DNA of 64,000 nucleotides, from assembly GCA_951406725.2 (NCBI GenBank), contig OX597814.1, positions 134,540,001 to 134,604,000 of the forward strand. Direction: 5' to 3'. The position numbers and the translations under genes were made by a program. Source of the stretch: Octopus vulgaris (Eukaryota). Shown here piece after piece: positions 10,596-64,000 of the stretch. The notes beneath the pieces are model-generated. The model did not search any database, had not been told where the DNA came from, and saw only the letters and a program-made list of their open reading frames with translations. Numbering within the stretch: the first letter of the stretch is position 1; the number at the start of each line of letters is the position of its first letter.

Positions 10596-10877
<282 letters not shown>

Positions 10878-11314
10878 CATCATCATTTAGCATCCGCTTT
10901 CCATGCTAGCATGGGTTGGACGGTTCAACTGGGGTCTGTGAAGCCAGAAGGCTGCATCAGGTCCAGTCTGATCTGGCAGTGTTTCTACTGCTGGATGCCC
11001 TTCCTAAAGCCAACCACTCCGTGAGTGTAGTGGGTGCTTTTTTACAGTGCCACCCGCACAGGTGCCAGACAGAGCTGGCAAACGGCTGCGGATGGACGGT
11101 GCTTTTTATGTGCCACCGGCACGGGGCCCAGGCGAGGCTGGCAACGGTCACGAACGGATGGAGCTTTTACGTGCCACTGGCACGGGGGCCAGACGAGGCT
11201 GGCAACGGCCACGAACGGATGGTGCTATGTGCCACCGGCACGGGGGCCAGGCGAGGCTGGCAACGGCCACGAATGGATGGTGCTTTTTATGTGCCACCGG
11301 CACAGAGGCCAGTC
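10878..11314 (-). mobile_element. RTE LINE 3' UTR with ~5 tandem ~61-bp hairpin repeats, ending at the gap
   Basis: Near-identical to 31128-31390; unit gtgccaccggcacgggggccaggcgaggctggcaacggccacgaacggatggtgctttttat. Confidence 0.9.
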
Positions 11315-11414
11315 NNNNNNNNNNNNNNNNNNNNNNNNNNNNNNNNNNNNNNNNNNNNNNNNNNNNNNNNNNNNNNNNNNNNNNNNNNNNNNNNNNNNNN
11401 NNNNNNNNNNNNNN
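11315..11414. other. Assembly gap (100 N)
   Basis: Run of n. Confidence 1.
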
Positions 11415-14400
11415 GCTACTTTCAAGCCTTCGCCATAACTTGATTTATCTTTCCTATCTCTCTCTCTACGAAATTTAACCTTAGGCTACCTCAAGCCGTA
11501 ATCCCATCTTTCCCCATCTTTCCGCCATCGGCGGTCTTTCCTCCTCTTCTTCTTCTTATGCTAAAACTTGAAAATCGCCATTACCATTACGATTCTACAA
11601 TTTAAATTCCCAATTCAACTTACTTTCTTCTTCAATTTCAACTCCCGGTCGATGCCCGCAGCAAGTTCTTAAAAATTTACTATTTTTATTTTTCCATACA
11701 TAGCGCGACATACATTCATTCGTTGTTACTACGTTTATTCATACATTGATAACTTGATTCGTCTTACCCATCTCTCTCACTACGAAAATTTAACCTTTTA
11801 GGCTACTTTCAAGCCTTCGCCATAACTTGATTTATCTTTCCTATCTCTCTCTACGAAATTTAACCTTAGGCTACCTCAAGCCGTAATCCCATCTTTCCCC
11901 ATCTTTCCGCCATCGGCGGTCTTTCCTCCTCTTCTTCTTCTTATGCTAAAACTTGAAAATCGCCATTACCATTACGATTCTACAATTTAAATTCCCAATT
12001 CAACTTACTTTCTTCTTCAATTTCAACTCCCGGTCGATGCCCGCAGCAAGTTCTTAAAAATTTATCTTACTATTTTTATTTTTCCATACATAGCGCGACA
12101 TACATTCATTCGTTGTTACTACGTTTATTCATACATTGATAACTTGATTCGTCTTACCCATCTCTCTCACTACGAAAATTTAACCTTTTAGGCTACTTTC
12201 AAGCCTTCGCCATAACTTGATTTATCTTTCCTATCTCTCTCCCTACGAAATTTAACCTTAGGCTACCTCAAGCCGTAATCCCATCTTTCCCCATCTTTCC
12301 GCCATCGGCGGTCTTTCCTCCTCTTCTTCTTCTTATGCTAAAACTTGAAAATCGCCATTACCATTACGATTCTACAATTTAAATTCCCAATTCAACTTAC
12401 TTTCTTCTTCAATTTCAACTCCCGGTCGATGCCCGCAGCAAGTTCTTAAAAATTTATCTTAATATTTTATTTTTCCATACATAGCACGACATACATTTAT
12501 TCGTTGTTACTACGTTTATTCATACATTGATAACTTGATTCGTCTTACCCATCTCTCTCACTACGAAAATTTAACCTTTTAGGCTACTTTCAAGCCTTCG
12601 CCATAACTTGATTTATCTTTCCTATCTCTCTCTCTACGAAATTTAACCTTAGGCTATCTCAAGCCGTAATCCCATCTTTCCCCATCTTTCCGCCATCGGC
12701 GGTCTATCCTCCTCTTCTTCTTCTTATGCTAAAACTTGAAAATCGCCATTACCATTACGATTCTACAATTTAAATTCCCAATTCAACTTACTTTCTTCTT
12801 CAATTTCAACTCCCGGTCGATGCCCGCAGCAAGTTCTTAAAAATTTACTATTTTTATTTTTCCATACATAGCGCGACATACATTCATTCGTTGTTACTAC
12901 GTTTATTCATACATTGATAACTTGATTCGTCTTACCCATCTCTCTCACTACGAAAATTTTACCTTTTAGGCTACTTTCAAGCCTTCGCCATAACTTGATT
13001 TATCTTTCCTATCTCTCTCTCTACGAAATTTAACCTTAGGCTACCTCAAGCCGTAATCCCATCTTTCCCCATCTTTCCGCCATCGGCGGTCTTTCCTCCT
13101 CTTCTTCTTCTTATGCTAAAACTTGAAAATCGCCATTACCATTACGATTCTACAATTTAAATTCCCAATTCAACTTACTTTCTTCTTCAATTTCAACTCC
13201 CGATCGATGCCCGCAGCAAGTTCTTAAAAATTTATCTTACTATTTTATTTTTCCATACATAGCGCGACATACATTCATTCGTTGTTACTACGTTTATTCA
13301 TACATTGATAACTTGATTCGTCTTACCCATCTCTCTCACTACGAAAATTTAACCTTTTAGGCTACTTTCAAGCCTTCGCCATAACTTGATTTATCTTTCC
13401 TATCTCTCTCTCTACGAAATTTAACCTTAGGCTACCTCAAGCCGTAATCCCATCTTTCCCCATCTTTCCGCCATCGGCGGTCTTTCCTCCTCTTCTTCTT
13501 CTTATGCTAAAACTTGAAAATCGCCATTACCATTACGATTCTACAATTTAAATTCCCAATTCAACTTACTTTCTTCTTCAATTTCAACTCCCGGTCGATG
13601 CCCGCAGCAAGTTCTTAAAAATTTATCTTACTATTTTTATTTTTCCATACATAGCGCGACATACATTCATTCGTTGTTACTACGTTTATTCATACATTGA
13701 TAACTTGATTCGTCTTACCCATCTCTCTCACTACGAAAATTTAACCTTTTAGGCTACTTTCAAGCCTTCGCCATAACTTGATTTATCTTTCCTATCTCTC
13801 TCTCTACGAAATTTAACCTTAGGCTACCTCAAGCCGTAATCCCATCTTTCCCCATCTTTCCGCCATCGGCGGTCTTTCCTCCTCTTCTTCTTCTTATGCT
13901 AAAACTTGAAAATCGCCATTACCATTACGATTCTACAATTTAAATTCCCAATTCAACTTACTTTCTTCTTCAATTTCAACTCCCGGTCGATGCCCGCAGC
14001 AAGTTCTTAAAAATTTATCTTACTATTTTATTTTTCCATACATAGCGCGACATACATTCATTCGTTGTTACTACGTTTATTCATACATTGATAACTTGAT
14101 TCGTCTTACCCATCTCTCTCACTACGAAAATTTTACCTTTTAGGCTACTTTCAAGCCTTCGCCATAACTTGATTTATCTTTCCTATCTCTCTCTCTACGA
14201 AATTTAACCTTAGGCTACCTCAAGCCGTAATCCCATCTTTCCCCATCTTTCCGCCATCGGCGGTCTTTCCTCCTCTTCTTCTTCTTATGCTAAAACTTGA
14301 AAATCGCCATTACCATTACGATTCTACAATTTAAATTCCCAATTCAACTTACTTTCTTCTTCAATTTCAACTCCCGGTCGATGCCCGCAGCAAGTTCTTA

Positions 14401-17400
14401 AAAATTTATCTTAATATTTTATTTTTCCATACATAGCACGACATACATTTATTCGTTGTTACTACGTTTATTCATACATTGATAACTTGATTCGTCTTAC
14501 CCATCTCTCTCACTACGAAAATTTAACCTTTTAGGCTACTTTCAAGCCTTCGCCATAACTTGATTTATCTTTCCTATCTCTCTCTCTACGAAATTTAACC
14601 TTAGGCTACCTCAAGCCGTAATCCCATCTTTCCCCATCTTTCCGCCATCGGCGGTCTATCCTCCTCTTCTTCTTCTTATGCTAAAACTTGAAAATCGCCA
14701 TTACCATTACGATTCTACAATTTAAATTCCCAATTCAACTTACTTTCTTCTTCAATTTCAACTCCCGGTCGATGCCCGCAGCAAGTTCTTAAAAATTTAC
14801 TATTTTTATTTTTCCATACATAGCGCGACATACATTCATTCGTTGTTACTACGTTTATTCATACATTGATAACTTGATTCGTCTTACCCATCTCTCTCAC
14901 TACGAAAATTTAACCTTTTAGGCTACTTTCAAGCCTTCGCCATTAACTTGATTTATCTTTCCTATCTCTCTCTCTACGAAATTTAACCTTAGGCTACCTC
15001 AAGCCGTAATCCCATCTTTCCCCATCTTTCCGCCATCGGCGGTCTTTCCTCCTCTTCTTCTTCTTATGCTAAAACTTGAAAATCGCCATTACCATTACGA
15101 TTCTACAATTTAAATTCCCAATTCAACTTACTTTCTTCTTCAATTTCAACTCCCGATCGATGCCCGCAGCAAGTTCTTAAAAATTTATCTTACTATTTTA
15201 TTTTTCCATACATAGCGCGACATACATTCATTCGTTGTTACTACGTTTATTCATACATTGATAACTTGATTCGTCTTACCCATCTCTCTCACTACGAAAA
15301 TTTAACCTTTTAGGCTACTTTCAAGCCTTCGCCATAACTTGATTTATCTTTCCTATCTCTCTCTCTACGAAATTTAACCTTAGGCTACCTCAAGCCGTAA
15401 TCCCATCTTTCCCCATCTTTCCGCCATCGGCGGTCTTTCCTCCTCTTCTTCTTCTTATGCTAAAACTTGAAAATCGCCATTACCATTACGATTCTACAAT
15501 TTAAATTCCCAATTCAACTTACTTTCTTCTTCAATTTCAACTCCCGGTCGATGCCCGCAGCAAGTTCTTAAAAATTTACTATTTTTATTTTTCCATACAT
15601 AGCGCGACATACATTCATTCGTTGTTACTACGTTTATTCATACATTGATATCTTGATTCGTCTTACCCATCTCTCTCACTACGAAAATTTAACCTTTTAG
15701 GCTACTTTCAAGCCTTCGCCATAACTTGATTTATCTTTCCTATCTCTCTCCCTACGAAATTTAACCTTAGGCTACCTCAAGCCGTAATCCCATCTTTCCC
15801 CATCTTTCCGCCATCGGCGGTCTTTCCTCCTCTTCTTCTTCTTATGCTAAAACTTGAAAATCGCCATTACCATTACGATTCTACAATTTAAATTCCCAAT
15901 TCAACTTACTTTCTTCTTCAATTTCAACTCCCGGTCGATGCCCGCAGCAAGTTCTTAAAAATTTATCTTACTATTTTATTTTTCCATACATAGCGCGACA
16001 TACATTCATTCGTTGTTACTACGTTTATTCATACATTGATAACTTGATTCGTCTTACCCATCACTCTCACTACGAAAATTTAACCTTTTCGGCTACTTTC
16101 AAGCCTTCGCCATAACTTGATTTATCTTTCCTATCTCTCTCTCTACGAAATTTAACCTTAGGCTACCTCAAGCCGTAATCCCATCTTTCCCCATCTTTCC
16201 GCCATCGGCGGTCTTTCCTCCTCTTCTTCTTCTTATGCTAAAACTTGAAAATCGCCATTACCATTACGATTCTACAATTTAAATTCCCAATTCAACTTAC
16301 TTTCTTCTTCAATTTCAACTCCCGGTCGATGCCCGCAGCCAAGTTCTTAAAAATTTATCTTACTATTTTTATTTTTCCATACATAGCGCGACATACATTC
16401 ATTCGTTGTTACTACGTTTATTCATACATTGATAACTTGATTCGTCTTACCCATCTCTCTCACTACGAAAATTTAACCTTTTAGGCTACTTTCAAGCCTT
16501 CGCCATAACTTGATTTATCTTTCCTATCTCTCTCTCTACGAAATTTAACCTTAGGCTACCTCAAGCCGTAATCCCATCTTTCCCCATCTTTCCGCCATCG
16601 GCGGTCTTTCCTCCTCTTCTTCTTCTTATGCTAAAACTTGAAAATCGCCATTACCATTACGATTCTACAATTTAAATTCCCAATTCAACTTACTTTCTTC
16701 TTCAATTTTAACTCCCGGTCGATGCCCGCAGCCAAGTTCTTAAAAATTTATCTTACTATTTTTATTTTTCCATACATAGCGCGACATACATTCATTCGTT
16801 GTTACTACGTTTATTCATACATTGATAACTTGATTCGTCTTACCCATCTCTCTCACTACGAAAATTTAACCTTTTAGGCTACTTTCAAGCCTTCGCCATA
16901 ACTTGATTTATCTTTCCTATCTCTCTCTCTACGAAATTTAACCTTAGGCTACCTCAAGCCGTAATCCCATCTTTCCCCATCTTTCCGCCATCGGCGGTCT
17001 TTCCTCCTCTTCTTCTTCTTATGCTAAAACTTGAAAATCGCCATTACCATTACGATTCTACAATTTAAATTCCCAATTCAACTTACTTTCTTCTTCAATT
17101 TCAACTCCCGGTCGATGCCCGCAGCAAGTTCTTAAAAATTTATCTTACTATTTTTATTTTTCCATACATAGCGCGACATACATTCATTCGTTGTTACTAC
17201 GTTTATTCATACATTGATAACTTGATTCGTCTTACCCATCTCTCTCACTACGAAAATTTAACCTTTTAGGCTACTTTCAAGCCTTCGCCATAACTTGATT
17301 TATCTTTCCTATCTCTCTCTCTACGAAATTTAACCTTAGGCTACCTCAAGCCGTAATCCCATCTTTCCCCATCTTTCCGCCATCGGCGGTCTTTCCTCCT

Positions 17401-20400
17401 CTTCTTCTTCTTATGCTAAAACTTGAAAATCGCCATTACCATTACGATTCTACAATTTAAATTCCCAATTCAACTTACTTTCTTCTTCAATTTCAACTCC
17501 CGGTCGATGCCCGCAGCAAGTTCTTAAAAATTTACTATTTTTATTTTTCCATACATAGCGCGACATACATTCATTCGTTGTTACTACGTTTATTCATACA
17601 TTGATAACTTGATTCGTCTTACCCATCTCTCTCACTACGAAAATTTAACCTTTTAGGCTACTTTCAAGCCTTCGCCATAACTTGATTTATCTTTCCTATC
17701 TCTCTCTCTATGAAATTTAACCTTAGGCTACCTCAAGCCGTAATCCCATCTTTCCCCATCTTTCCGCCATCGGCGGTCTTTCCTCCTCTTCTTCTTCTTA
17801 TGCTAAAACTTGAAAATCGCCATTACCATTACGATTCTACAATTTAAATTCCCAATTCAACTTACTTTCTTCTTCAATTTCAACTCCCGGTCGATGCCCG
17901 CAGCCAAGTTCTTAAAAATTTATCTTACTATTTTTATTTTTCCATACATAGCGCGACATACATTCATTCGTTGTTACTACGTTTATTCATACATTGATAA
18001 CTTGATTCGTCTTACCCATCTCTCTCACTACGAAAATTTAACCTTTTAGGCTACTTTCAAGCCTTCGCCATAACTTGATTTATCTTTCCTATCTCTCTCT
18101 CTACGAAATTTAACCTTAGGCTACCTCAAGCCGTAATCCCATCTTTGTCCATCTTTCCGCCATCGGCGGTCTTTCCTCCTCTTCTTCTTCTTATGCTAAA
18201 ACTTGAAAATCGCCATTACCATTACGATTCTACAATTTAAATTCCCAATTCAACTTACTTTCTTCTTCAATTTCAACTCCCGGTCGATGCCCGCAGCAAG
18301 TTCTTAAAAATTTATCTTACTATTTTTATTTTTCCATACATAGCGCGACATACATTCATTCGTTGTTACTACGTTTATTCATACATTGATAACTTGATTC
18401 GTCTTACCCATCTCTCTCACTACGAAAATTTAACCTTTTAGGCTACTTTCAAGCCTTCGCCATAACTTGATTTATCTTTCCTATCACTCTCTCTACGAAA
18501 TTTAACCTTAGGCTACCTCAAGCCGTAATCCCATCCTTCCCCATCTTTCCGCCATCGGCGGTCTTTCCTCCTCTTCTTCTTCTTATGCTAAAACTTGAAA
18601 ATCGCCATTACCATTACGATTCTACAATTTAAATTCCCAATTCAACTTACTTTCTTCTTCAATTTCAACTCCCGGTCGATGCCCGCAGCAAGTTCTTAAA
18701 AATTTATCTTACTATTTTATTTTTCCATACATAGCGCGACATACATTCATTCGTTGTTACTACGTTTATTCATACATTGATAACTTGATTCGTCTTACCC
18801 ATCTCTCTCACTACGAAAATTTAACCTTTTAGGCTACTTTCAAGCCTTCGCCATAACTTGATTTATCTTTCCTATCTCTCTCTCTACGAAATTTAACCTT
18901 AGGCTACCTCAAGCCGTAATCCCATCCTTCCCCATCTTTCCGCCATCGGCGGTCTTTCCTCCTCTTCTTCTTCTTATGCTAAAACTTGAAAATCGCCATT
19001 ACCATTACGATTCTACAATTTAAATTCCCAATTCAACTTACTTTCTTCTTCAATTTCAACTCCCGGTCGATGCCCGCAGCAAGTTCTTAAAAATTTATCT
19101 TACTATTTTATTTTTCCATACATAGCGCGACATACATTCATTCGTTGTTACTACGTTTATTCATACATTGATAACTTGATTCGTCTTACCCATCTCTCTC
19201 ACTACGAAAATTTAACCTTTTAGGCTACTTTCAAGCCTTCGCCATAACTTGATTTATCTTTCCTATCTCTCTCTCTACGAAATTTAACCTTAGGCTACCT
19301 CAAGCCGTAATCCCATCTTTCCCCATCTTTCCGCCATCGGCGGTCTTTCCTCCTCTTCTTCTTCTTATGCTAAAACTTGAAAATCGCCATTACCATTACG
19401 ATTCTACAATTTAAATTCCCAATTCAACTTACTTTCTTCTTCAATTTCAACTCCCGGTCGATGCCCGCAGCAAGTTCTTAAAAATTTATCTTACTATTTT
19501 ATTTTTCCATACATAGCGCGACATACATTCATTCGTTGTTACTACGTTTATTCATACATTGATAACTTGATTCGTCTTACCCATCTCTCTCACTACGAAA
19601 ATTTAACCTTTTAGGCTACTTTCAAGCCTTCGCCATAACTTGATTTATCTTTCCTATCTCTCTCTCTACGAAATTTAACCTTAGGCTACCTCAAGCCGTA
19701 ATCCCATCTTTCCCCATCTTTCCGCCATCGGCGGTCTTTCCTCCTCTTCTTCTTATGCTAAAACTTGAAAATCGCCATTACCATTACGATTCTACAATTT
19801 AAATTCCCAATTCAACTTACTTTCTTCTTCAATTTCAACTCCCGGTCGATGCCCGCAGCAAGTTCTTAAAAATTTACTATTTTTATTTTTCCATACATAG
19901 CGCGACATACATTCATTCGTTGTTACTACGTTTATTCATACATTGATAACTTGATTCGTCTTACCCATCTCTCTCACTACGAAAATTTAACCTTTTAGGC
20001 TACTTTCAAGCCTTCGCCATAACTTGATTTATCTTTCCTATCTCTCTCTCTATGAAATTTAACCTTAGGCTACCTCAAGCCGTAATCCCATCTTTCCCCA
20101 TCTTTCCGCCATCGGCGGTCTTTCCTCCTCTTCTTCTTCTTATGCTAAAACTTGAAAATCGCCATTACCATTACGATTCTACAATTTAAATTCCCAATTC
20201 AACTTACTTTCTTCTTCAATTTCAACTCCCGGTCGATGCCCGCAGCAAGTTCTTAAAAATTTATCTTACTATTTTTATTTTTCCATACATAGCGCGACAT
20301 ACATTCATTCGTTGTTACTACGTTTATTCATACATTGATAACTTGATTCGTCTTACCCATCTCTCTCACTACGAAAATTTAACCTTTTAGGCTACTTTCA

Positions 20401-23400
20401 AGCCTTCGCCATAACTTGATTTATCTTTCCTATCTCTCTCTCTACGAAATTTAACCTTAGGCTACCTCAAGCCGTAATCCCATCTTTGTCCATCTTTCCG
20501 CCATCGGCGGTCTTTCCTCCTCTTCTTCTTCTTATGCTAAAACTTGAAAATCGCCATTACCATTACGATTCTACAATTTAAATTCCCAATTCAACTTACT
20601 TTCTTCTTCAATTTCAACTCCCGGTCGATGCCCGCAGCAAGTTCTTAAAAATTTATCTTACTATTTTTATTTTTCCATACATAGCGCGACATACATTCAT
20701 TCGTTGTTACTACGTTTATTCATACATTGATAACTTGATTCGTCTTACCCATCTCTCTCACTACGAAAATTTAACCTTTTAGGCTACTTTCAAGCCTTCG
20801 CCATAACTTGATTTATCTTTCCTATCACTCTCTCTACGAAATTTAACCTTAGGCTACCTCAAGCCGTAATCCCATCCTTTCCCCATCTTTCCGCCATCGG
20901 CGGTCTTTCCTCCTCTTCTTCTTCTTATGCTAAAACTTGAAAATCGCTATTACCAATACGATTCTACAATTTAAATTCCCAATTCAACTTACTTTCTTCT
21001 TCAATTTCAACTCCCGGTCGATGCCCGCAGCAAGTTCTTAAAAATTTATCTTACTATTTTATTTTTCCATACATAGCGCGACATACATTCATTCGTTGTT
21101 ACTACGTTTATTCATACATTGATAACTTGATTCGTCTTACCCATCTCTCTCAATACGAAAATTTAACCTTTTAGGCTACTTTCAAGCCTTCGCCATAACT
21201 TGATTTATCTTTCCTATCTCTCTCTCTACGAAATTTAACCTTAGGCTACCTCAAGCCGTAATCCCATCTTTCCCCATCTTTCCGCCATCGGCGGTCTATC
21301 CTCCTCTTCTTCTTCTTATGCTAAAACTTGAAAATCGCCATTACCATTACGATTCTACAATTTAAATTCCCAATTCAACTTACTTTCTTCTTCAATTTCA
21401 ACTCCCGGTCGATGCCCGCAGCAAGTTCTTAAAAATTTATCTTACTATTTTATTTTTCCATACATAGCGCGACATACATTCATTCGTTGTTACTACGTTT
21501 ATTCATACATTGATAACTTGATTCGTCTTACCCATCTCTCTCACTACGAAAATTTAACCTTTTAGGCTACTTTCAAGCCTTCGCCATAACTTGATTTATC
21601 TTTCCTATCTCTCTCTCTACGAAATTTAACCTTAGGCTACCTCAAGCCGTAATCCCATCTTTCCCCATCTTTCCGCCATCGGCGGTCTTTCCTCCTCTTC
21701 TTCTTCTTATGCTAAAACTTGAAAATCGCCATTACCATTACGATTCTACAATTTAAATTCCCAATTCAACTTACTTTCTTCTTCAATTTCAACTCCCGGT
21801 CGATGCCCGCAGCAAGTTCTTAAAAATTTATCTTAATATTTTATTTTTCCATACATAGCACGACATACATTTATTCGTTGTTACTACGTTTATTCATACA
21901 TTGATAACTTGATTCGTCTTACCCATCTCTCTCACTACGAAAATTTAACCTTTTAGGCTACTTTCAAGCCTTCGCCATAACTTGATTTATCTTTCCTATC
22001 TCTCTCTCTACGAAATTTAACCTTAGGCTACCTCAAGCCGTAATCCCATCTTTCCCCATCTTTCCGCCATCGGCGGTCTTTCCTCCTCTTCTTCTTCTTA
22101 TGCTAAAACTTGAAAATCGCCATTACCATTACGATTCTACAATTTAAATTCCCAATTCAACATACTTTCTTCTTCAATTTCAACTCCCGGTCGATGCCCG
22201 CAGCAAGTTCTTAAAAATTTACTATTTTTATTTTTCCATACATAGCGCGACATACATTCATTCGTTGTTACTACGTTTATTCATACATTGATATCTTGAT
22301 TCGTCTTACCCATCTCTCTCACTACGAAAATTTAACCTTTTAGGCTACTTTCAAGCCTTCGCCATAACTTGATTTATCTTTCCTATCTCTCTCCCTACGA
22401 AATTTAACCTTAGGCTACCTCAAGCCGTAATCCCATCTTTCCCCATCTTTCCGCCATCGGCGGTCTTTCCTCCTCTTCTTCTTCTTATGCTAAAACTTGA
22501 AAATCGCCATTACCATTACGATTCTACAATTTAAATTCCCAATTCAACTTACTTTCTTCTTCAATTTCAACTCCCGGTCGATGCCCGCAGCAAGTTCTTA
22601 AAAATTTATCTTACTATTTTATTTTTCCATACATAGCGCGACATACATTCATTCGTTGTTACTACGTTTATTCATACATTGATAACTTGATTCGTCTTAC
22701 CCATCTCTCTCACTACGAAAATTTAACCTTTTCGGCTACTTTCAAGCCTTCGCCATAACTTGATTTATCTTTCCTATCTTTCTCTCTACGAAATTTAACC
22801 TTAGGCTACCTCAAGCCGTAATCCCATCTTTCCCCATCTTTCCGCCATCGGCGGTCTTTCCTCCTCTTCTTCTTCTTATGCTAAAACTTGAAAATCGCCA
22901 TTACCATTACGATTCTACAATTTAAATTCCCAATTCAACTTACTTTCTTCTTCAATTTCAACTCCCGGTCGATGCCCGCAGCAAGTTCTTAAAAATTTAC
23001 TATTTTTATTTTTCCATACATAGCGCGACATACATTCATTCGTTGTTACTACGTTTATTCATACATTGATAACTTGATTCGTCTTACCCATCTCTCTCAC
23101 TACGAAAATTTAACCTTTTAGGCTACTTTCAAGCCTTCGCCATAACTTGATTTATCTTTCCTATCTCTCTCTCTACGAAATTTAACCTTAGGCTACCTCA
23201 AGCCGTAATCCCATCTTTCCCCATCTTTCCGCCACCGGCGGTCTTTCCTCCTCTTCTTCTTCTTATGCTAAAACTTGAAAATCGCCATTACCATTACGAT
23301 TCTACAATTTAAATTCCCAATTCAACTTACTTTCTTCTTCAATTTTAACTCCCGGTCGATGCCCGCAACCAGTTCTTAAAAATTTATCTTACTATTTTTA

Positions 23401-26001
23401 TTTTTCCATACATAGCGCGACATACATTCATTCGTTGTTACTACGTTTATTCATACATTGATAACTTGATTCGTCTTACCCATCTCTCTCACTACGAAAA
23501 TTTAACCTTTTAGGCTACTTTCAAGCCTTCGCCATAACTTGATTTATCTTTCCTATCTCTCTCTCTACGAAATTTAACCTTAGGCTACCTCAATCCGTAA
23601 TCCCATCTTTTCCCATCTTTCCGCCATTGGCGGTCTTTTTCTTTTTTTTTTTTTTTTCCTCCTCTTCTTCTTCTTATGCTAAAACTTGAAAATCGCCATT
23701 ACCATTACGATTCTACAATTTAAATTCCCAATTCAACTTACTTTCTTCTTCAATTTCAACTCCCGGTCGATGCCCGCAGCAAGTTCTTAAAAATTTATCT
23801 TACTATTTTTATTTTTCCATACATAGCGCGACATACATTCATTCGTTGTTACTACGTTTATTCATACATTGATAACTTGATTCGTCTTACCCATCTCTCT
23901 CACTACGAAAATTTAACCTTTTAGGCTACTTTCAAGCCTTCGCCATAACTTGATTTATCTTTCCTATCTCTCTCTCTATGAAATTTAACCTTAGGCTACC
24001 TCAAGCCGTAATCCCATCTTTCCCCATCTTTCCGCCATCGGCGGTCTTTCCTCCTCTTCTTCTTCTTATGCTAAAACTTGAAAATCGCCATTACCATTAC
24101 GATTCTACAATTTAAATTCCCAATTCAACTTACTTTCTTCTTCAATTTCAACTCCCGGTCGATGCCCGCAGCAAGTTCTTAAAAATTTATCTTACTATTT
24201 TTATTTTTCCATACATAGCGCGACATACATTCATTCGTTGTTACTACGTTTATTCATACATTGATAACTTGATTCGTCTTACCCATCTCTCTCACTACGA
24301 AAATTTAACCTTTTAGGCTACTTTCAAGCCTTCGCCATAACTTGATTTATCTTTCCTATCTCTCTCTCTACGAAATTTAACCTTAGGCTACCTCAAGCCG
24401 TAATCCCATCTTTGTCCATCTTTCCGCCATCGGCGGTCTTTCCTCCTCTTCTTCTTCTTATGCTAAAACTTGAAAATCGCCATTACCATTACGATTCTAC
24501 AATTTAAATTCCCAATTCAACTTACTTTCTTCTTCAATTTTAACTCCCGGTCGATGCCCGCAACCAGTTCTTAAAAATTTATCTTACTATTTTTATTTTT
24601 CCATACATAGCGCGACATACATTCATTCGTTGTTACTACGTTTATTCATACATTGATAACTTGATTCGTCTTACCCATCTCTCTCACTACGAAAATTTAA
24701 CCTTTTAGGCTACTTTCAAGCCTTCGCCATAACTTGATTTATCTTTCCTATCACTCTCTCTACGAAATTTAACCTTAGGCTACCTCAAGCCGTAATCCCA
24801 TCCTTCCCCATCTTTCCGCCATCGGCGGTCTTTCCTCCTCTTCTTCTTCTTATGCTAAAACTTGAAAATCGCCATTACCATTACGATTCTACAATTTAAA
24901 TTCCCAATTCAACTTACTTTCTTCTTCAATTTCAACTCCCGGTCGATGCCCGCAGCAAGTTCTTAAAAATTTATCTTACTATTTTATTTTTCCATACATA
25001 GCGCGACATACATTCATTCGTTGTTACTACGTTTATTCATACATTGATAACATGATTCGTCTTACCCATCTCTCTCACTACGAAAATTTAACCTTTTAGG
25101 CTACTTTCAAGCCTTCGCCATAACTTGATTTATCTTTCCTATCTCTCTCTCTACGAAATTTAACCTTAGGCTACCTCAAGCCGTAATCCCATCTTTCCCC
25201 ATCTTTCCGCCATCGGCGGTCTTTCCTCCTCTTCTTCTTCTTATGCTAAAACTTGAAAATCGCCATTACCATTACGATTCTACAATTTAAATTCCCAATT
25301 CAACTTACTTTCTTCTTCAATTTCAACTCCCGGTCGATGCCCGCAGCCAGTTCTTAAAAATTTATCTTACTATTTTTATTTTTCCATACATAGCGCGACA
25401 TACATTCATTCGTTGTTACTACGTTTATTCATACATTGATAACTTGATTCGTCTTACCCATCTCTCTCACTACGAAAATTTAACCTTTTAGGCTACTTTC
25501 AAGCCTTCGCCATAACTTGATTTATCTTTCCTATCTCTCTCTCTACGAAATTTAACCTTAGGCTACCTCAAGCCGTAATCCCATCTTTCCCCATCTTTCC
25601 GCCATCGGCGGTCTATCCTCCTCTTCTTCTTCTTATGCTAAAACTTGAAAATCGCCATTACCATTACGATTCTACAATTTAAATTCCCAATTCAACTTAC
25701 TTTCTTCTTCAATTTCAACTCCCGGTCGATGCCCGCAGCAAGTTCTTAAAAATTTATCTTATTTTTATTTTTCCATACATAGCGCGACATACATTCATTC
25801 GTTGTTACTACGTTTATTCATACATTGATAACTTGATTCGTCTTACCCATCTCTCTCACTACGAAAATTTAACCTTTTAGGCTACTTTCAAGCCTTCGCC
25901 ATAACTTGATTTATCTTTCCTATCTCTCTCTCTACGAAATTTAACCTTAGGCTACCTCAAGCCGTAATCCCATCTTTCCCCATGTTTCCGCCATCGGCGG
26001 T
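11415..26001. repeat. Tandem array of ~390-bp monomers (about 37 full copies plus one partial)
   Basis: ggctactttcaagcc recurs about every 385-410 bp (11801, 12191 ... 25491, 25880); copies differ by only a few substitutions/indels; pyrimidine-rich + strand, many CpG. Confidence 0.99.
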
Positions 26002-26014
26002 GCGCCCGCCCCCA

Positions 26015-26270
26015 CCCCCACCACCAATACCGATGAACACTGTTCTCACCCCCACCACCAATACCGATGAACACTGTTCTCATCCCCACCACCAATACCG
26101 GTGAACACTGTTCTCACCCCCACCACCAATACCGGTGAACACTGTTCTCACCGCCACCACCAATACCGGTGAACACTGTTCTCACCCCCACCACCAATAC
26201 CAGTATACCCTGTTCTCACCATCTACACCGGATACGCCCTACTCATCTATACCGGATACGCCCTACTCCC
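26015..26270 (+). repeat. 33-bp minisatellite (~6 copies) plus a 24-bp dimer in the LINE 5' UTR
   Basis: ccccaccaccaataccggtgaacactgttctca repeated; then atctacaccggatacgccctactc twice. Confidence 0.95.
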
Positions 26271-26654
26271 TCCTCCTCCCCCACTCCCCCTTCTCCTCAT
26301 ATGCTTTCACTGTGAAAAGACAAGCTGCTAGCGCCATAGCTCATCAACTGCCCACCGATCTTACGCTTCCTCCTGACACTGCCTCAATCCGACCATCCCC
26401 TTTTAGTACCCTCCCGCCTCGTAATATCCTACGTTTTTATTTCTTACGAACCTACACCAACCCTTCCTGCCATCGTTCCTCCTTACCCCAACCTTCCCCA
26501 CTGGTTGCTCCCCTATATTACCCGCACCCTCTACTATCTCTCCCTCTCTTTCACTGGTGAAACCTTTCTCAACTGGACCCCCCTCCCCAACTCAACTCTA
26601 GAATATCTGTATTTCTTTCCTCTACCTAATTACGTTACTCAGTGACGATAACGA

Positions 26655-29600
26655 ATGTCCACTGCTAACACCAGCTCCTGCCCACGGCGTGGTCAGGTTG
26701 GAAGAGAGATCAAAAGAAAAATACCACGAAAACTATCACCACCACAACAACCCTCCTCTTCTCAGGCGCCGAATCCCCCCGTCCCCCCCACATCTCCTTC
26801 CCAGTTTTCAGAGTTGGCACTATCAATGTTGGTACATTGACAGGCAAGTCTAGTGAGATTGTAGAGATGCTAGAGAGAAGACAGGTTGATGTATGCTGCA
26901 TACAAGAGGTAAGATGGAGAGATGCTTCGGCTAGGGTCCTCACGGGCAAGGCACTTAGGTACAAACTCTACTGGCAAGGTAACGCGGAAGGTGTAGGGGG
27001 TGTAGGCATTCTCCTTGCGGAGGAATGGGTGGATAAGGTCATAGAGGTTGTCAGGGTTTGTGATAGAGTGCTTAAGCTCAGGTTGGTCCTACAGAGTGGC
27101 ACAGCTATGATTATCTCAGCCTATGCCCCACAAGCGGGACTACCAAATGATCAGAAGGACAACTTTTATGATACCCTTCTGCAGGCTACTTCAAAGACTA
27201 GTAACAAGGACCTCATCTTTGTAGGTGGAGATTTTAATGGGCATGTTGGGCGGGAATCGGGTATCTTCACTGGGGTACATGGTGGCTATGGTATTGGCAC
27301 CAGAAATGATGAGGGAACTAGACTGCTGGAATTCTGTGATGCATGTAACCTTTCAATCTGCAACACTAACTTCAAGAAGCCAGTCTGCCACCTTATAACT
27401 TATCAGTCAGGAGACTCCGCTAGCCAAATAGACTTCATCCTCACCAGACAACGGGATGCAGGGTTGCTCTTGAATACAAAGACCCTCCCGGGTGAAGAAT
27501 GTATCCCTCAGCATAGACTAATCATCAGTGACTTTAAGCTTGAGGCCAGAAGGACTCCAAGAAACAAACCAATCCAGAAAAGAAGGATTTGGAGGCTAAA
27601 GAACCCTTCGCATGGTCAGAAATTTAGGGACATACTCATCAAGAAATTTGATGAGAGGGAGGAGGAGCTTCAGACGTCAGACATAGAAGGTAGCTGGGAA
27701 TTCCTACGGGACAGCTTGCTGAGTGCCACAGACCAAGTCTGTGGATGGTGCAAAGTCCCTTCCAGACCTAGAATTACGTGGTGGTGGAATAGTGCAGTAG
27801 ATAAAGCCATCTGTGAAAAGAGACGGGCCTGGAAAGCCTGGAAGGATGGGGGCAGCAGGGAACTGTACCAGATAGCCAAAAGGGAGGCTGGGCGGCAGGT
27901 ATACATTGCCAAAGATGTAGCAGAAAAGAAGAAGTTTGCCAATGTCCAGCGTCGCGAGGATCAAAGAGCTGAAGTATTTCGGATTGCCAGACAGTGTGTC
28001 AGAGAAAATAGCGATGTTATAGGAGAGAAATGTGTCCGCATGGATGATGGGGCACTTGCTTTTACTACTAGTGAAAAGAAAGAGGCTTGGAGAAGCCATT
28101 ATGAAAGACTGCTGAATGAGGAGAATGAATGGGAGGAGGAGAGCCTGCCAAATGTTGACCCAGTAGAGGGACCAGCTACCCGAATAGACAGCTCCCTTGT
28201 AGATAAGGCAATTAAGGATATGAAACCAGGCAAAGCCCCTGGCCTATCAGGAATCACTGCTGAGATGCTTAAAACAGCTGGCTATGTGGGCTATGCCATA
28301 GTCACCCGCATTGTAAACCAGGTAGTTCACAATGGAGTCATACCCAATGACTGGTGCAGCAGCACCATAGTCAACTGCTACAAGGGTAAGGGTGATGCTC
28401 TAGATAGAAATAACTACAGAGGTATCAAACTGTTGGACCAGGTGATGAAGGTCTCAGAGAAGGTCATAACCAATCTCATTAGGGAGAGAATTTGTTTAGA
28501 TGAAATGCAGTTCGGTTTTGTACCAGGTAGAAGCACCACTGATGCTATATTCCTGGTCCGACAACTGCAGGAGAAGTACCTAGCTAAAGATAAACCCCTC
28601 TACATAGCTTTTGTAGACTTGGAGAAAGCCTTTGACAGGGTTCCCCGTTCCCTTATCTGGTGGTCGATGCGGAAACTGGAGATTGAAGAATGGCTAATAA
28701 GGGCTGTACAGGCTCTATACAGAGAGGCTGTCAGCAAGGTTAGGATTGGCAACGAATATAGTGAAGAATTCCGGGTAGAAGTAGGTGTGCACCAGGGCTC
28801 AGCCCTCAGTCCCCTTTTATTCATCATAGTCCTTCAGGCAATAACAGAGGAATTCAAAACGGGATGCCCCGGGGAGCTCCTCTATGCCGATGACCTAGCT
28901 CTCATAGCAGAATCACTACCGGAACTAGAAGAGAAATTTCGGGTGTGGAAGCAAGGGTTGGAATCAAAGGGCCTTAGAATAAATGTAGCAAAGACCAAAG
29001 TATTAGTAAGCAGCAAGAGGTACTCAGCACACACCCCTCGGGTAGGTGGCCCTGCTCAACCTGTAGGAAAGGTACAGGTAGAAACTCCATAAGATGCACC
29101 CAATGTAAGTTATGGACACATAAGAGGTGCAGCAACATTAAAGGGAAATTAACAGATAAGATAGCTTTCATGTGCGGCAGATGCACAGGGACAATAGACA
29201 CAACAGACACTCAGAAAACAGATTCCATCACACTCCAGGGAGAGAAACTAGAAGTAGTTGATAGTTTCCGCTACCTGGGTGACCAAGTTAGTAGCGGAGG
29301 TGGATGCACAGAGAGTATCACCACTAGAATACGAATAGCCTGGGCAAAGTTCAGAAAGCTCCTACCCCTACTGGCAACAAAAGGTCTCTCCCTCAGAGCA
29401 AAAGGTAGATTGTATGATGCATGTGTGCGAACTGCCATGCTTCACGGTAATGAAACATGGGCTGTGACTGCAGAAGACATGCGTAGACTTGAAAGAAATG
29501 AAGCTAGCATGATCCGCTGGATGTGTAGTGTCAGTGTGCACGCAAGACAGAGTGTAAGCATCCTGAGAGAAATGCTGGATATAAGAAGCATCAGATGTGG

Positions 29601-29955
29601 TGTGCAAGAGCGACGCTTGCGATGGTATGGTCATGTGCTGCGGATGGATGAAGAGAGATGTGTGAAGAAGTGCCACTCCCAAACAGTTGAAGGTATCAGG
29701 GGGAGAGGTAGACCCAGGAAGACATGGGATGAGGTAGTCAAGCATGACCTCAGAGCATTGGGCCTCACTGAGGCAATGGCGAAGGACCGAGATCTCTGGA
29801 GATATGCTGTGACTACAAAGACCCGGGCTGCTTTCTGCAGCAATTCCACATACCCCCTACCCATTCTAAGTACCCCGGATCCCCAAAGTACCCTGGATCC
29901 CCAAAGTACCCCGATCCCCAAAGTACCCCGGACCTCGTTGCCCCCGTGCCGCTGA
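26655..29955 (+). CDS. RTE EN-RT polyprotein, interrupted by two apparent frameshifts (~26780, ~29035)
   Basis: ORFs 26655..26840, 26837..29092 and 29170..29955 join by single-base shifts; the second shift restores TPSGRWPC, as in the sister copy (TPSRRWPC, ~32420). Confidence 0.85.
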
Positions 29956-30203
29956 CACGTTAAAAGCTCGAACCGATCGTGACCGATGCCGGACCCTCCG
30001 GCCCCTGTGCAGGTGGCACGTAAAAGCACCCAATCCACTCACGGAGTGGTTGGCGTTAGGAAGGGCATCCAGCCGTAGAAACTCTGCCAGATTCAGACTG
30101 GAGCCTGGAGCGGCCCCTGGCTTCCCAGACCCGGTCGAACCATCCAACCCGTGCTAGCGCGGAAAGCGGACGTTAAACGATGATGATGATGATGATGATG
30201 ATG

Positions 30204-32619
<2,416 letters not shown>

Positions 32620-34399: not shown

Positions 34400-35310
34400 T
34401 ATGACAAATTACCTGCAATATTTCTTAAAAATTGCAGAGCGTTTTCAGATTGATAATTTTCACCTAGCATCTTTAGTCGTGCATCAATTATTTGATAGGA
34501 CTTTTTTTTTTGTTGTTGAGTCCCTACATCGAATGTGCACAATTTTCATCTGGGTTAAGCCTTCTTCAGTCTTAAGAGCATTGCAAAGTTTCCACAAATT
34601 TGTATATGTGAATGTTATTGATGACTGCAAAGCATTGTGAAACCCTTCTATCAAATTATTTGCTCTTGGCAAGTCATTTAAAATGCATTCACGTATATTC
34701 CAGGGTTGGATAGGAAACTGTGGGGTTTCTCTTCGTTAATGAAGACTACGTCCCCTTACAGTCCCCATGTATGAATTCTCAAAATAAGTGATAAACTCAG
34801 AAGAGATGCTTTCATCATCAGACAAATCTTCAAATCCATTGATAATGTCTTCAATTGGTATAAATGCTAAAGTGCAAAAACAATTTTAAGCTGAAAACTT
34901 TCATCCTTGTTGTATCTCCTACTTTCACCAAGTGCACATATCTTCGGCCAAATAGACTGTCTAAGATGAAAAGCACACCCAACTACTTCTAAATATGGAA
35001 ATGCTGAAACAAATGAATTTTGGAGAAATTTTTCAAAGTCCATGAGACAGGTTGCAGGTCGACAATTTGCCCTTAAATCCCACACAGCAGACAAAAAACC
35101 ATGATATGAGCCTTCTTTTTTGTCAGCAAGTAAGGCAAATAGCCTGGGCACACATGACCCTCCAATGATGAAATGTAATGTGAAAAGCTGACACCACAAA
35201 CTAGGGAACACCTTAAAAGTTCTATCACAGGCCCAATTTTCAGAGCTTTCTAGATCATCCAAGCCTTTTTCTGAGGAAAAAACTAAAATTCTGTCTGAGT
35301 TGTCAATGCC
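34400..35310 (-). pseudogene. MULE/Mutator-like transposase relic
   Basis: WACDRTFKVFPSLWCQLFTLH, LADKKEGSY, MDFEK, GCAFHLRQSIW and PRANNLIEGFHNAL correspond to MULE motifs DGTF, DFE, GCxFH and RTNNxxEGxH; stops and frameshifts present. Confidence 0.88.
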
Positions 35311-36049
35311 GCTGTTAATTAATTAATTAGTACTATTGACATAATTTTAAGAACTATTATGATTACTTCAAAACATGATGGTACTCTCACTCCCTCTTTG
35401 TCTAAAACTATTGGCATATCCCGTTATTGTAAGTTTTTTATTTTACTTTTTTATTACTTATCTACTATGTTACCTCCATAGAAAAATTAACCCACCAATT
35501 ACTATTTTAAGTTTAGTCATTTACTCAAGGTCCCGAAGTGACACATAAGCAAAATGGTATGATTTAAATATATTAAGCCTTTCATCTTCCTCTCAAGGCT
35601 CTTCTTCCTTTCTTTTCTTTTCTTTTTCTGTATGTATTTTTCTTCACTCTGATGAAGCTCCATGTTCCAGATCGGATGTATTACCAAATATGATGAATAT
35701 TATTTTCAGAATTTTCAATGGCAATACTAGAGATGCCCAAAGCTTCTATCATTCATCAAACATCAAGGTGCCAGAAAAACTCTTGTGTTTGTGAATGAGA
35801 AGTTCACTGTGGATGCTGAAGTGAATCACAGAAATTCTTCTGACATCTCCACTGTTTTTGAGACTAAGAAACCTGCCTCTGTGATAGATGCTTGATGGTG
35901 GGTATTTGTTTAGTTGTACATTTATGAACAGTTTCCAGGAGATTGATATGCCAAACAAGATAGGAGTTCCAGACTGGTGATGCAAACTCTAAGTGTGGAC
36001 ATACCATATACAGCTTTAAATAGATAGTTGATGAACAGCTTACTGAATG

Positions 36050-36606
36050 ATGGAAGTGTCATGGATCCACACGTCATTGAGTTTGGCTTGAAGATCGGCA
36101 CAAAGGAGTATCTGGAGTTCTTGGAGAACTCTCTGTTACCTTGGATGGAGCAGAAGTTTGGGCTTGACAATGTGATCCTTAGCCAGGGTTCTGCACCATG
36201 TCTTGGGTCAAAAGTAACACAGGCCTTCCTTGGTGAGAAGGTGCCATTTTTTGTGAGGGCCAACATCTCGCCCAGTAATAGCCCAGATCTCAACCTTCTC
36301 AATTACTTTTTATGTGGCATACTTCAAGCAAGGACCAATGCTTCACCATACTTGAGTGTCAACAGTTTGAAGACCTGTATTGTGCATGCAACATAGAATC
36401 AAAAAGGCTGAGGTTGCGGCAGCTGCAAAAAATTTCGTTCTCATATGGAGGCTGTAATTGTCCAAAAGGGTGGCCATATTGAGTGATAAATGCTTTGTTG
36501 CAATAAGTTTTACATTAAAATTATATCTGTGTACTACCATTATTTTAGGATTTATAAACTGTTTTATGCACCATAAAAACTGTCTCAATTTATCTGCAAG
36601 ACCCTG
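36050..36606 (+). mobile_element. Tc1/mariner (maT/DD37D-like) transposon 3' relic
   Basis: QGSAPC and SNSPDLNLLNYFLCGIL (QDxAPxH, SPDLNPLDY); ends ...gcaagaccctg|TA, a CAGGG-type TIR. Confidence 0.82.
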
Positions 36607-53639: not shown

Positions 53640-56600
53640 ACGTTTGTTTGCTTTTTATGATGCTTTATTTTAACACATATATTTTAGTATCAATTTATGA
53701 TCGAAAAAACTATTATAATTTACTGTTGCGTGCTAGTGTTTACTCATCTCATTACAATTTGATTGCCAGTTAACTATATTATTACTTTACAAAATTGTGT
53801 TCCTTTTCAGCATAGTGAAATTATTATTGAGTTGTTTGTTGGTTATTTATTGAGCACAGTTTTACCTGCGTCTTTTTGTTGTTTTTCTGTTTGCTTCCCT
53901 TGCAGTGAAAAAAAGCTTAACCTAGCAAAGTACAGTAAGTAAGGAGTTTAGTTCTTTGATATAAAATGACCTGTATTGTTGTTTGCAACATGCTTTCGAT
54001 ATTTGACACACAATCTGTAGGTAAAAGAAACAGAAAGTTGGACTTGAAGAGACAAGAAATAAAAGTCTGGTTGGTACGACCACATTTTTGCCTATTCATT
54101 TGTTATATACATAGTAAGAATGTTTGTCTTTATTTTCTTAACACCTTTTGCTTTATTTTCTTAACACATATATTTCAGTATCAATTTATGATCGTAAAAT
54201 GTATTGTAAATGACTGTTGTGTGCTAGTGTTTATTCATCTCTTTACTATTTGATTGCTAGTTAACTATATTATTACTTTATAAAATTGTGTTCCCTTTCA
54301 GCATTGTGAAATTATTATTGAGTTGTTTGTTGGATATTTGTTGAGCACAGTTTTGTTTGTGTGTTTCTCTTGTTGTTTTTTTATTTGGTTTCCTTGCAGT
54401 GCAAAAGCTTAAGCTAGCAAAGTTACAGTAAGTAAGCAGTTTAGTTCTTTGATATAAAATGTCCTGTATTGTGTGCAACATGCTTTCTATATTTGACACA
54501 GAATCTGTAGGTCAAAGAAACAGATAGTTGGACTTGAAAAGACAGAAGGAATGAAATTCTGGCTGGTACAACAGCATTTTTGCCTATTCATTTGCTATAT
54601 ACATAGCAAGAATGTTCGTCTTAATTTTCTTAAAACCTTTGGCTTTATTTTCTTAACACATATATTTTAGTATCAATTTATGATCGTAAAATTTATTCTA
54701 AATGACTGTTGCGTGCTAGTGTTTACTCATCTCATTATTATTTGATTGCTAGTTAACTATGTTATTACCTTATAAAATTGTGTTCCCTTTCACCATTGTG
54801 AAATTATTATTGAGTTGTTTGTTGGTTATTTATTCAGCACAGTTTTACCTGTGTCTTTTTGTTGTTGTTTTTCTGTTTGCTTTCCTTGCAGTGAAAAAAG
54901 CTGAAGCTAGCAAAGTACTGTAAGTAAGCAGTTTAGTTCTTTGATATAAAATGACCTGTATTGTTGTTTGGAACATGCTTTCGATATTTGACACACAATC
55001 TGTAGGTAAATGAAACAGAAAGTTGGACTTGAAGAGACAAAAGAAATGAAATTTTGGTTGGTACGACCCCATTTTTGCCTATTCATTTGTTATATACATA
55101 GTAAGAATGTTCGTTTTTATTTTCTTAACACATATATTTTAGTATCAATTTGTGATTGTAAAGATATTGTACTTTACTGTTGCGTGCTAGTGTTTACTCA
55201 TCTCTTAACTATTTCATTGCTAGTTGACTATATTATTACTTTATAAAATTGTGTTCCCTTTCAGCATTGTGGAATTATTATTGAGTTGTTTGTTGGTAAT
55301 ATGTTGAGCACAGTTTTGCTTCTGTGTTTCTGTTGTTGTTTTTCTGTTTGCCTTCCTTGCAGTGAAAAAAAGCGTAAGCTAGCAAAGTACAGTAAGTAAG
55401 CAGTTTACTTCTTTGATATTAAATGACCTGAATTGTTGTTTGCAACATGTTTTCGATATTTGACACCCAATCTGTAGGTAAAAAAACAGAAAGTTGGACT
55501 TAAAGAGACAGAAGTGAAATTCTGGTTGGTACGACCGCATTTTTGCCTATTCATTTGTTATATACATAGTAAGAATGTTCGTCTTTATTTTCTTAATACC
55601 TTTTGCTTTATTTTCTTAACACATATATTTTAGTATCAATTTATGATTGTAAAGATATTGTACTTTACTGTTGTGTACTAGTGTTTACTAATCTCATTAC
55701 TATTTGATTGCTATTTAACTATATTATTACTTTACATAACTCTGTTCCTTTTCAGCATTGTGAAATTATTATTGAGTTGTTTGTTGGTTATTTATTGAGC
55801 ACAGTTTTGCCTGTGTCTTTTTGTTGTTGTTTTTTCTGTTTCCTTTCCTTGCAGTCAAAAAAAGCTTAAGCTAGCAAAGTACAGTAAGTAAGCAGTTTAG
55901 TTCTTTGATATAAAATGACCTGTATTGTTGTTTGCAACATGCTTTCGATATTTGACACACCATCTGTAGGTAAAAGAAACAGATAGTTGGACTTGAAAGG
56001 ACAGAAGCAACAAAATTCTGGCTTGTACAACCGCATTTTTGCCTATTCATTTGCTATATATATAGTAAGAATGTTCGTCTTTATTTTCTTAAAACCTTTT
56101 GCTTTATTTTCTTAACACATATATTTTAGTATCAATTTATGATCGTAAAATGTATGGTAAATGACTGTTGCGTGCTAGTGTTTATTCATCTCTTTACTAT
56201 TTGATTGCTAGTTAACTTTATTATTACTTTATAAAATTGTGTTCCCTTTCAGCATTGTGAAATTATTACTGAGTTGTTTGTTGGTTATTTGTTGAGCACA
56301 GTTTTGTATGTATGTTTCTCTTGTTGTTTTTTTTATTTGGTTTCCTTGCAGTGCAAAAAGCTTAAGCTAGCAAAGTACAGTAAGGAAGCAGTTTAGTTAT
56401 TTGATATAAAATGTCCTGTATTGTTGTTTGCAACATGCTTTCTATATTTGACACAGAATCTGTAGTTCAAAGAAACAGATAGTTGGACTTGAAAAGACAG
56501 AAGGAATGAATTTCTGGCTAGTACAACAGCATTTTTGCCTATTTATTATTGAGTTGTTTGTTGGTTATTTATTGAGCACAGTTTTGCCTGTGTCTTTTTG

Positions 56601-62600: not shown

Positions 62601-64000
62601 AAGCTTAAGCTAGCAAAGTACAGTAAGTAAGCAGTTTAGTTCTTTGATATAAAATGACCTGTATTGTTGTTTGGAACATGCTTTCGATATTTGACACACA
62701 ATCTGTAGGTAAATGAAACAGGATGTTGGACTTGAAGAGACAGAAGAAATGAAATTTTGGTTGGTACGACCCCATTTTTGCCTATTCATTTGTTATATAC
62801 ATAGTAAGAATGTTCGTTTTTATTTTCTTAACACCTTTTGCTTTATTTTCTTAACACATATATTTTAGTATAAATTTGTGATTGTAAATATATTGTACTT
62901 TACTGTTGCGTGCTAGTGTTTATTCATCTCTTTACTATTTGATTGCTAGTTAACTATATTATTACTTTATAAAATTGTGTTCCCTTTCAGCATTGTGAAA
63001 TTATTACTAAGTTGTTTGTTGGTTATTTGTTGAGCACAGTTTTGTATGTATGTTTCTCTTGTTGTTTTTTATTTGGTTTCCTTGTAGTGCAAAAAGCTTA
63101 AGCTAGCAAAGTACAGTAAGTAAGCAGTTTATTTATTTGATATAAAATGTCCTGTATTCTTTGCAACATGCTTTCTATATTTGACACAGAATCTGTAGGT
63201 CAAAGAAACAGATAGTTGGACTTGAAAAGACAGAAGGAATGAATTTCTGGCTGGTACAACAGCATTTTTGCCTATTTATTATTGAGTTGTTTGTTGGTTA
63301 TTTATTGAGCACAGTTTTGCCTGTGTCTTTTTGTTGTTTTTCTGTTTGCTTTACTTGCAGTGAAAAAAAGCTTAAGCTAGCAACGTACAGTAAGTAAGCA
63401 GTTTAGTTCTTTGATATAAAATGACCTGTATTGTTGTTTGCAACATGCTTTCGATATTTGACACACAATCTGTAGGTAAAAGAAACAGAACGTTGAACTT
63501 GAAGAGACAGATGAAATGAAATTCTTGTTGGTACGACCGCATTTTTGCCTATTCATTTGTTATATACATAGGAAGAATGTTCGTCTTTGTTTTCTTAACA
63601 CCTTTTGCTTTATTTTCTTAACACATATATTTTAGTATCAATTTATGATTGTAAAGATATTGTACTTTACTGTTGTGTACTAGTGTTTACTAATCTCATT
63701 ACTATTTGATTGCTATTTAACTATATTATTACTTTATAAAATTGTGTTCCCTTTCAGCATTGTGAAATTATTATTGAGTTGTTTGTTGGTAATATGTTGA
63801 GCACAGTTTTGCTTCTGTGTTTCTGTTGTTGTTTTTCTGTTTGCTTTCCTTGCAGTGAAAAAAAGCTTAAGCTAGCAAAGTACAGTAAGTAAGCAGTTTA
63901 GTTCTTTGATATGAAATGAACTGTATTGTTGTTTGCAACATGCTTTCGATATTTGACACAATCTGTAGGTAAAAGAAACAGAAAGTTGGACTTGAAGAGA
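53640..64000 (+). repeat. ~494-bp tandem array (23 copies in window, four shortened to ~275 bp) carrying splice-site cassettes
   Basis: ccttgcag|tgaaaaaaagcttaagctagcaaagtaca|gtaagt and variants at 53906, 54400, 54892, 55363, 55855, 56352, 56628 ... 63361, 63856. Confidence 0.97.

Follow-up and report, generated by a model that had tools for sequence, protein, structure and literature searches.

A stretch of Octopus vulgaris DNA of 64,000 nucleotides (assembly GCA_951406725.2, contig OX597814.1, positions 134,540,001 to 134,604,000; hereafter the window) contains a long tandem array of a 391-bp monomer that runs directly into the 5' untranslated region (UTR) of a long interspersed nuclear element (LINE). 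Such a locus raises the question of whether the LINE landed in a host satellite made of this monomer or whether the monomer is a part of the LINE itself and, in the latter case, what the monomer does and how so many copies came to be stacked. Here, we examined the window and searched the genome (2.8 Gb in 227 contigs) for the monomer, the UTR and their junction, and we show that the monomer forms the 5' module of a young family of RTE-type LINEs rather than a satellite of the host. We favor the reading, with a probability of about 0.65, that the monomer serves as an internal promoter that can be stacked, and that its tandem copies likely multiply at the locus once the element has been inserted, reaching at least 37 units in the window.

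Monomer array and junction in the window

The features of the locus are listed in Table 1. The array at 11415-26001 has a period of 391 bp, 37.3 copies and 98% matches, which bears out the original prediction of a 14.6-kb monomer array fused to the 5' end of a LINE. The last monomer indeed breaks off after the hairpin, in that CCGCCATCGGCGG (25988-26000) and a single T are followed directly by the UTR, and no monomer was found past the (GAT)9 tail and the (TA)n tract on the 3' side. The description of the LINE as near-intact was also appropriate: compared with 15 other full-length copies, the window copy has 2 private substitutions in 3.5 kb and one private 1-bp loss near 29033, which breaks the frame of its open reading frame (ORF). 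In addition, the ATG at 26655 is out of frame in this copy because of an extra base near 26782, which is common to 12 of the 15 other copies. The monomer had further been said to be CpG-rich and to have the same pyrimidine-rich strand as the UTR, and both statements were confirmed. The observed/expected ratio of CpG was 1.67 in the array versus 0.42 in the remaining window; the array has 43 CpG per kb at a GC content of only 37%, the UTR has 38 CpG per kb, and pyrimidines make up 66% and 67% of the + strand of array and UTR, respectively.

Two parts of the original prediction had to be revised. The absence of (TA)n and of a target-site duplication (TSD) at 26001 is real, but 26001 had been taken for the 5' junction of the element. 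Neither feature is expected there, because this position is an internal boundary between monomer and UTR. The element's true 5' end was lost in the assembly gap farther upstream, and the 37 units are therefore a minimum. Most copies of this family start inside a monomer at their 5' ends, and 106 of the 141 resolved ends adjoin (TA)n; thus, the missing (TA)n of the window should lie within the gap, next to the outermost monomer. The supposed sister copy at 31128-32619 (- strand) turned out to be 5'-truncated and only 78-82% identical, and it represents another family.

Table 1 Features of the array-carrying LINE in the window
Feature	Position	Strand	Remarks
Assembly gap, 100 N	11315..11414		Hides the true 5' end of the element
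Monomer array, at least 37.3 copies of 391 bp	11415..26001	+	Expanded 5' module of the element; many variant types, block duplications
Reference monomer	25220..25611	+	Position 1 = 25220; CGCCAT at 42, 289 and 381
Hairpin motif closing every window monomer	25988..26001	+	Fixed monomer-to-UTR junction right after 26001
Unique tether-like 5' UTR, ~650 bp	26002..26654	+	34-bp repeat x6.1 (26013-26220), 24-bp repeat x2
Single ORF region	26655..29955	+	Open frames 26669-29092 and 28978-29955
AP endonuclease	about 26819-27478	+	Pfam PF03372/PF14529
Reverse transcriptase	about 28406-29014	+	Pfam PF00078
PHD-like zinc finger after the reverse transcriptase core	about 29053-29184	+	Pfam E 8e-5
3' end retained by internally deleted derivatives	29804..30205	+	69 derivatives resume at 29804; ends in (GAT)9 30179-30205
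(TA)n microsatellite at 3' junction	30204..31129		Usual flank of the family

Linkage of the monomer to the element across the genome

Exact motifs of the monomer-to-UTR junction were identified at 192 sites (163 + 29), all with the same base and orientation, and reversed controls gave 0 sites. Genome-wide, the monomers never resume 3' of the element at these sites. Among 154 arrays, 149 enter the UTR, two a variant UTR and one the ORF, and the remaining two are inverted 5' pieces. It should be noted that most of these arrays were chosen by the junction, which makes this count circular on its own; because loci picked in this way are linked by construction, we relied on loci that were picked by the monomer. 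All 24 loci showing a monomer-monomer pattern run into the UTR, as do all 12 arrays in a complete census of the 93 matches of a 247-bp monomer variant, and when the first 100 matches (of 1,465) of one monomer motif were followed, 14 of the 15 loci that they represent were linked as well, the exception being an isolated 20-mer surrounded by other sequence. Starting from the UTR, we found monomer DNA directly 5' in 30 of the 30 best loci. Transposon-independent arrays, as a free host satellite would form, were absent from these three monomer-first sets. For three motifs, the sequences examined overall covered 927 of 1,465, 827 of 1,040 and 157 of 163 matches, and free arrays may be present among the remainder. 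Monomer-to-monomer joints were also present in contigs of three runs from three studies. Thus, the earlier proposal that the monomer is a part of the element was upheld, and none of the three refuting outcomes named with it was observed: arrays elsewhere are linked in the same way, other full-length copies carry the monomer, and the junction recurs at exact sites. At L199:2440-2850 (C1:56.0076 Mb), an exact 20-mer of the monomer is embedded in different pyrimidine-rich DNA, which may represent the 5' region of a related element.

Class of the element

The element possesses two features of the RTE clade, namely one ORF with AP endonuclease and reverse transcriptase (RT) and a short tandem repeat at the 3' end. 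Frames of 1,053-1,117 aa are open in 11 of the 16 full-length copies, and all 16 end in a (GAT)n tail, with no poly(A). No ORF1 is present, and the single ORF sets the element apart from the two-ORF L1 clade. ORF layout, domains and 3' tail therefore fit an RTE-type LINE. PF00628 is listed for many homologs too, and the PHD-like finger is thus a lineage trait. The octopus family RTE-2_OV was considered as a candidate and rejected: four RTE-2_OV primers, compared in place of the sequence itself, mismatch the element at 6-8 of 20 bases, which indicates that the element is another family.

Structure of the family

The number of monomers per copy ranges from under 1 to over 120, with a median of 1.9 (n=149). 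At least one unit is present in 120 of these copies, at least five in 34, at least 10 in 22 and at least 30 in six; open-ended arrays were counted at their available length. The largest arrays were found on C2 (at least 120 units over 39 kb), C14 (25.7 kb) and C28 (13.6 kb), the last of which has 37 units and stands gap-free before a full-length copy. The window array is not singular, as it is exceeded by at least two others and equaled in length by one. Only 53 of the 149 copies go on into the ORF; 88 skip to the last 200-500 bp (69 of them at one breakpoint) and eight are unclassified. These 88 internally deleted derivatives have lost the ORF and kept the monomers, the UTR and the 3' end, and their deletion joint was likewise found in contigs of other runs. 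On the 3' side, 69 of 102 ends adjoin (TA)n. All monomer variants contain a conserved core, their periods ranging between 247 and 393 bp, and the divergence from the window copy was 3.0% for monomers versus 0.58% for the ORF (41 copies). The carriers are very young, with 11 private substitutions in 9,064 sites of array-carrying bodies (21 loci).

Several individual loci deserve mention. At three of them (L099, L089 and L203), the UTR is a variant that has only the first ~35 bp past the junction in common with the usual one, that is, the tether was replaced behind the same monomer. The outer monomers of L074 (C27:15.915 Mb), L151 (C17:58.386 Mb) and L021 (C19:2.583 Mb) are inverted, like the 5' inversions of twin priming. 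Chimeric arrays mixing monomer types of different subfamilies were observed at L216-L215-L179-L178-L107 (C2:127.45-127.49 Mb) and L144 (C15:0.97 Mb), which suggests exchange between loci or template switching. Finally, same-orientation pairs of family members lie within a few kb of each other, some beside gaps (L153-L154, C19:47.68-47.69 Mb; L136+L003, C11:55.02 Mb; L013+L135, C11:53.94-53.95 Mb), and are candidates for tandem insertion or duplicated haplotypes.

Probable promoter role of the monomer and proposed growth of the arrays in place

Because a LINE copy contains only what its RNA contained, transcription of this family starts within or upstream of the monomers. In the mechanism that we propose, it would start within the monomer, mostly in the first half, and each new copy would lose part of the outermost unit and keep the whole downstream units, as in mouse L1; we regard these two steps together as quite probable. 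The 5' ends of copies were enriched at monomer positions 43-158 (75 of 141 in a 120-bp window versus 59 expected, p=0.0013). This enrichment holds with A/T weighting, and part of the zone is GC-rich and offers little microhomology to TA. The ORF-less derivatives that keep their monomers, the CpG ratio of the array, the fast monomer turnover and the non-uniform 5' ends all fit a stackable internal promoter, a role that we infer by analogy with mouse. The original prediction had offered a promoter array or a satellite born from the 5' end, and each option is right in part: a variable-number 5' module, probably a promoter, is present in most copies and reaches satellite size in a minority. A sigma-70 promoter scan found nothing, this bacterial factor being irrelevant to an animal. 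In three runs that may consist of RNA or of DNA, contig depth was higher on the monomer than on the ORF, but such depth is not a gauge of expression and carries no weight here.

With regard to array size, the giant arrays would probably arise at the locus itself, where the tandem units would undergo many rounds of unequal exchange or gene conversion. Sixteen variants were each found in at least two window monomers and in none of 17 close monomers from other loci, and these recurring variants sit in adjacent blocks (11 versus 4.6 expected, p=0.012). One variant type is present in the unit next to the UTR as well as in a unit farther inside the array. Other arrays consist of successive units of a single type peculiar to the locus, followed by a last unit that they have in common. 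Since the errors of one RT pass are not re-copied, DNA-level duplication must have occurred, here or in an unseen parent, and the repetition of locus-private variants in blocks favors growth in place. Judged from these variant patterns, the window array likely grew in place. In 21 long arrays, single variants were rarer than private changes in the bodies (0.057% versus 0.121%, p=0.024), which suggests that the arrays are younger than the insertions. CpG decay as a cause of the window variants explains only 3 of 36.

A number of observations weigh against this reading. The enrichment of 5' ends is spread over roughly a third of the unit, which holds 53% of the ends, and it is weaker than a fixed start would give, and the enriched zone is partly AT-rich and able to pair with (TA)n. 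CGCCAT occurs three times per monomer versus 0.13 expected, a motif chosen post hoc, and the 5' ends do not gather at CGCCAT or CCATCTT, unlike those of mouse T and G monomers, which lie near a YY1 site according to the available text of PMC6454616. When the YY1 site GCCATCTT was looked for at the truncation cluster, only partial motifs (CGCCAT three times, CCATCTT) were found in the monomer, mostly outside the enriched zone. The inner units of the 247-bp variant lack the hairpin. TSDs around array plus element were found at 2 of 102 loci versus 0.67 by chance, a looser criterion giving five candidates, and the flanks are mostly (TA)n. Of one monomer motif, 538 of 1,465 matches lay outside the examined set and were later covered only in part. 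As for growth in place, 14 single variants and 10 repeated ones were counted over 13 kb of the window array, compared with the 2 private substitutions of its body; several arrays of 23-77 units are near-uniform (0.05-0.17%), as one burst at insertion would also give; and the deleted derivatives, with their shorter bodies, have longer arrays (median 854 versus 615 bp, p=0.007).

The last three points would be accommodated if the giant arrays were made during retrotransposition, with RT either re-priming repeatedly on monomer RNA or copying a 15-40 kb RNA of a long-array parent. The modal unit of the near-uniform arrays is that of other loci, the youth of the carriers agrees with such an origin, and an array more diverse than its body is what an inherited long array would give. 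However, private variants repeated in blocks require mutation followed by DNA duplication, no long variant order common to two loci was seen by eye, the rarity of single variants in arrays points the other way, and the length difference between derivatives and full-length copies is confounded by monomer type. We therefore consider an origin during retrotransposition rather unlikely. The diversity of the window array exceeds what the insertion age predicts, and faster mutation in the array, poorer consensus accuracy or an inherited long array could each account for it. In a bolder version, which we hold to be more doubtful still, the element's RT would re-prime on the monomer in a telomerase-like manner, one insertion would lay down a 10-40 kb array and later DNA exchange would only reshuffle it; if true, the family would be a machine writing new satellite arrays and promoter stacks genome-wide.

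The promoter role itself also has a competitor, in which the monomer is a 5' repeat that was captured by the element, is carried with it passively and gives rise to satellites, while transcription starts from the UTR or flanking DNA. The broad distribution of 5' ends, the copies that retain <60 bp of monomer and the CpG richness of the UTR itself agree with it. On the other hand, monomers are carried only if the RNA starts upstream of them, at least one whole unit is kept in 120 of 149 copies, the conserved core survives in all monomer variants, and derivatives that delete part of the UTR still keep monomers, all of which makes a passive repeat improbable. A host satellite hit by a LINE insertion, or a misassembled junction, might be suspected from the start of the window array at an assembly gap and from the 6 arrays that adjoin gaps. 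It is already refuted for the junction by the exact sites that share one base and orientation without monomers resuming 3' and by complete gap-free cases such as the one on C28, and we give it a negligible chance. Retrozymes resemble the monomer array in unit size and tandem layout, and the monomer could in principle be a unit of this kind that contains a self-cleaving ribozyme and was amplified via circular RNA. Nevertheless, no Rfam ribozyme, hammerhead included, matched at E up to 10 over 25100-26800, the folding z was -0.9 on both strands, and the arrays are tied to one LINE UTR; an RNA-circle origin is thus very improbable.

Comparison with known systems

The stackable promoter module has its closest parallel in mouse. 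According to the available text of the sources, mouse L1Md carries variable-number 5' monomers joined by a tether to the ORF (PMC5381506, PMC6454616), and the promoter activity of the monomers was shown by CAGE (cap analysis of gene expression) and reporters (PMC6454616, PMC9022269). The mean is 2.7-3.1 units and the longest array has 50 units (11.3 kb), which is ascribed to unequal crossing-over (PMC6454616). The octopus family is similar in its variable, CpG-rich 5' monomers with a unique tether and a truncated outermost unit, in the few units that are typical (a median of 1.9), and in fast monomer-type turnover, rare giant arrays and 5' inversions. It differs in being a single-ORF RTE-type element with a (GAT)n tail and units of 247-393 bp, and in a far heavier tail of the size distribution, with 22 of 149 copies having at least 10 units and a maximum of at least 120 (39 kb). 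Moreover, most octopus carriers are ORF-less derivatives, their ends do not cluster at YY1-like motifs, and promoter activity is proposed for the octopus family by analogy. We infer that the octopus element probably works like the monomer-plus-tether 5' end of mouse L1 without being an L1 member.

A-modules of the Dictyostelium element TRE5-A occur in tandem. The 5' end of TRE5-A is modular and includes a promoter module of 200 bp, and the deleted derivative TRE5-A.2 is mobilised in trans (PMC3159450, available text). The modular 5' end and the internally deleted derivative recur in the octopus family, whereas TRE5-A has two ORFs and targets tRNA genes. RTE-clade LINEs such as AdLINE3 have a single ORF with AP endonuclease and RT and 3' short tandem repeats in place of poly(A) (PMC5850137). 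The octopus element resembles AdLINE3 (PMC5850137) and RTE-2_OV (PMC9115989) in its single ORF of about 1,050-1,100 aa, these domains and the 3' repeats, as far as the available text describes them. In contrast, that text mentions no 5' monomer array for either element, and the word 'tandem' appears 0 times in that of PMC9115989. The titles and abstract openings examined in the open literature, which leave subscription journals and Repbase reports outside their scope, mention no RTE element with a 5' monomer array. High-copy 5' monomers are called a special feature of mouse L1, and their extension is left open, in the available text of PMC6454616.

The octopus family is a second, independent case of 5' monomer stacks, carried here by an RTE-type element with a single ORF. 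Since it comprises about 190 young copies and many types of monomer, and since its arrays range from under 1 to over 120 units, it makes array extension testable by comparing alleles and new insertions. In addition, satellite-sized arrays born at LINE 5' ends would be split by repeat annotation into 'satellite' and 'LINE', and such arrays coincide with assembly gaps, as in six cases here.

Other features of the window

The 3' ends of another RTE family flank the gap on the left (10876-11314) and the element on the right (31128-31446), each after (TA)n. These two pieces are 96% alike over 181 bp (typical value 86%), the second best among 205 other matches, and no unique flank common to both was found around the gap. 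The assembly may have joined two alleles across the gap, or the pieces may stem from a local duplication. Farther downstream, degenerate frames at 34867-35322 and 36028-36396 resemble remnants of DNA-transposon transposases, judged by eye only. A second large tandem array at 53670-63557, with periods of about 492-496 and 277-278 bp and 85-89% matches, reaches the end of the window.

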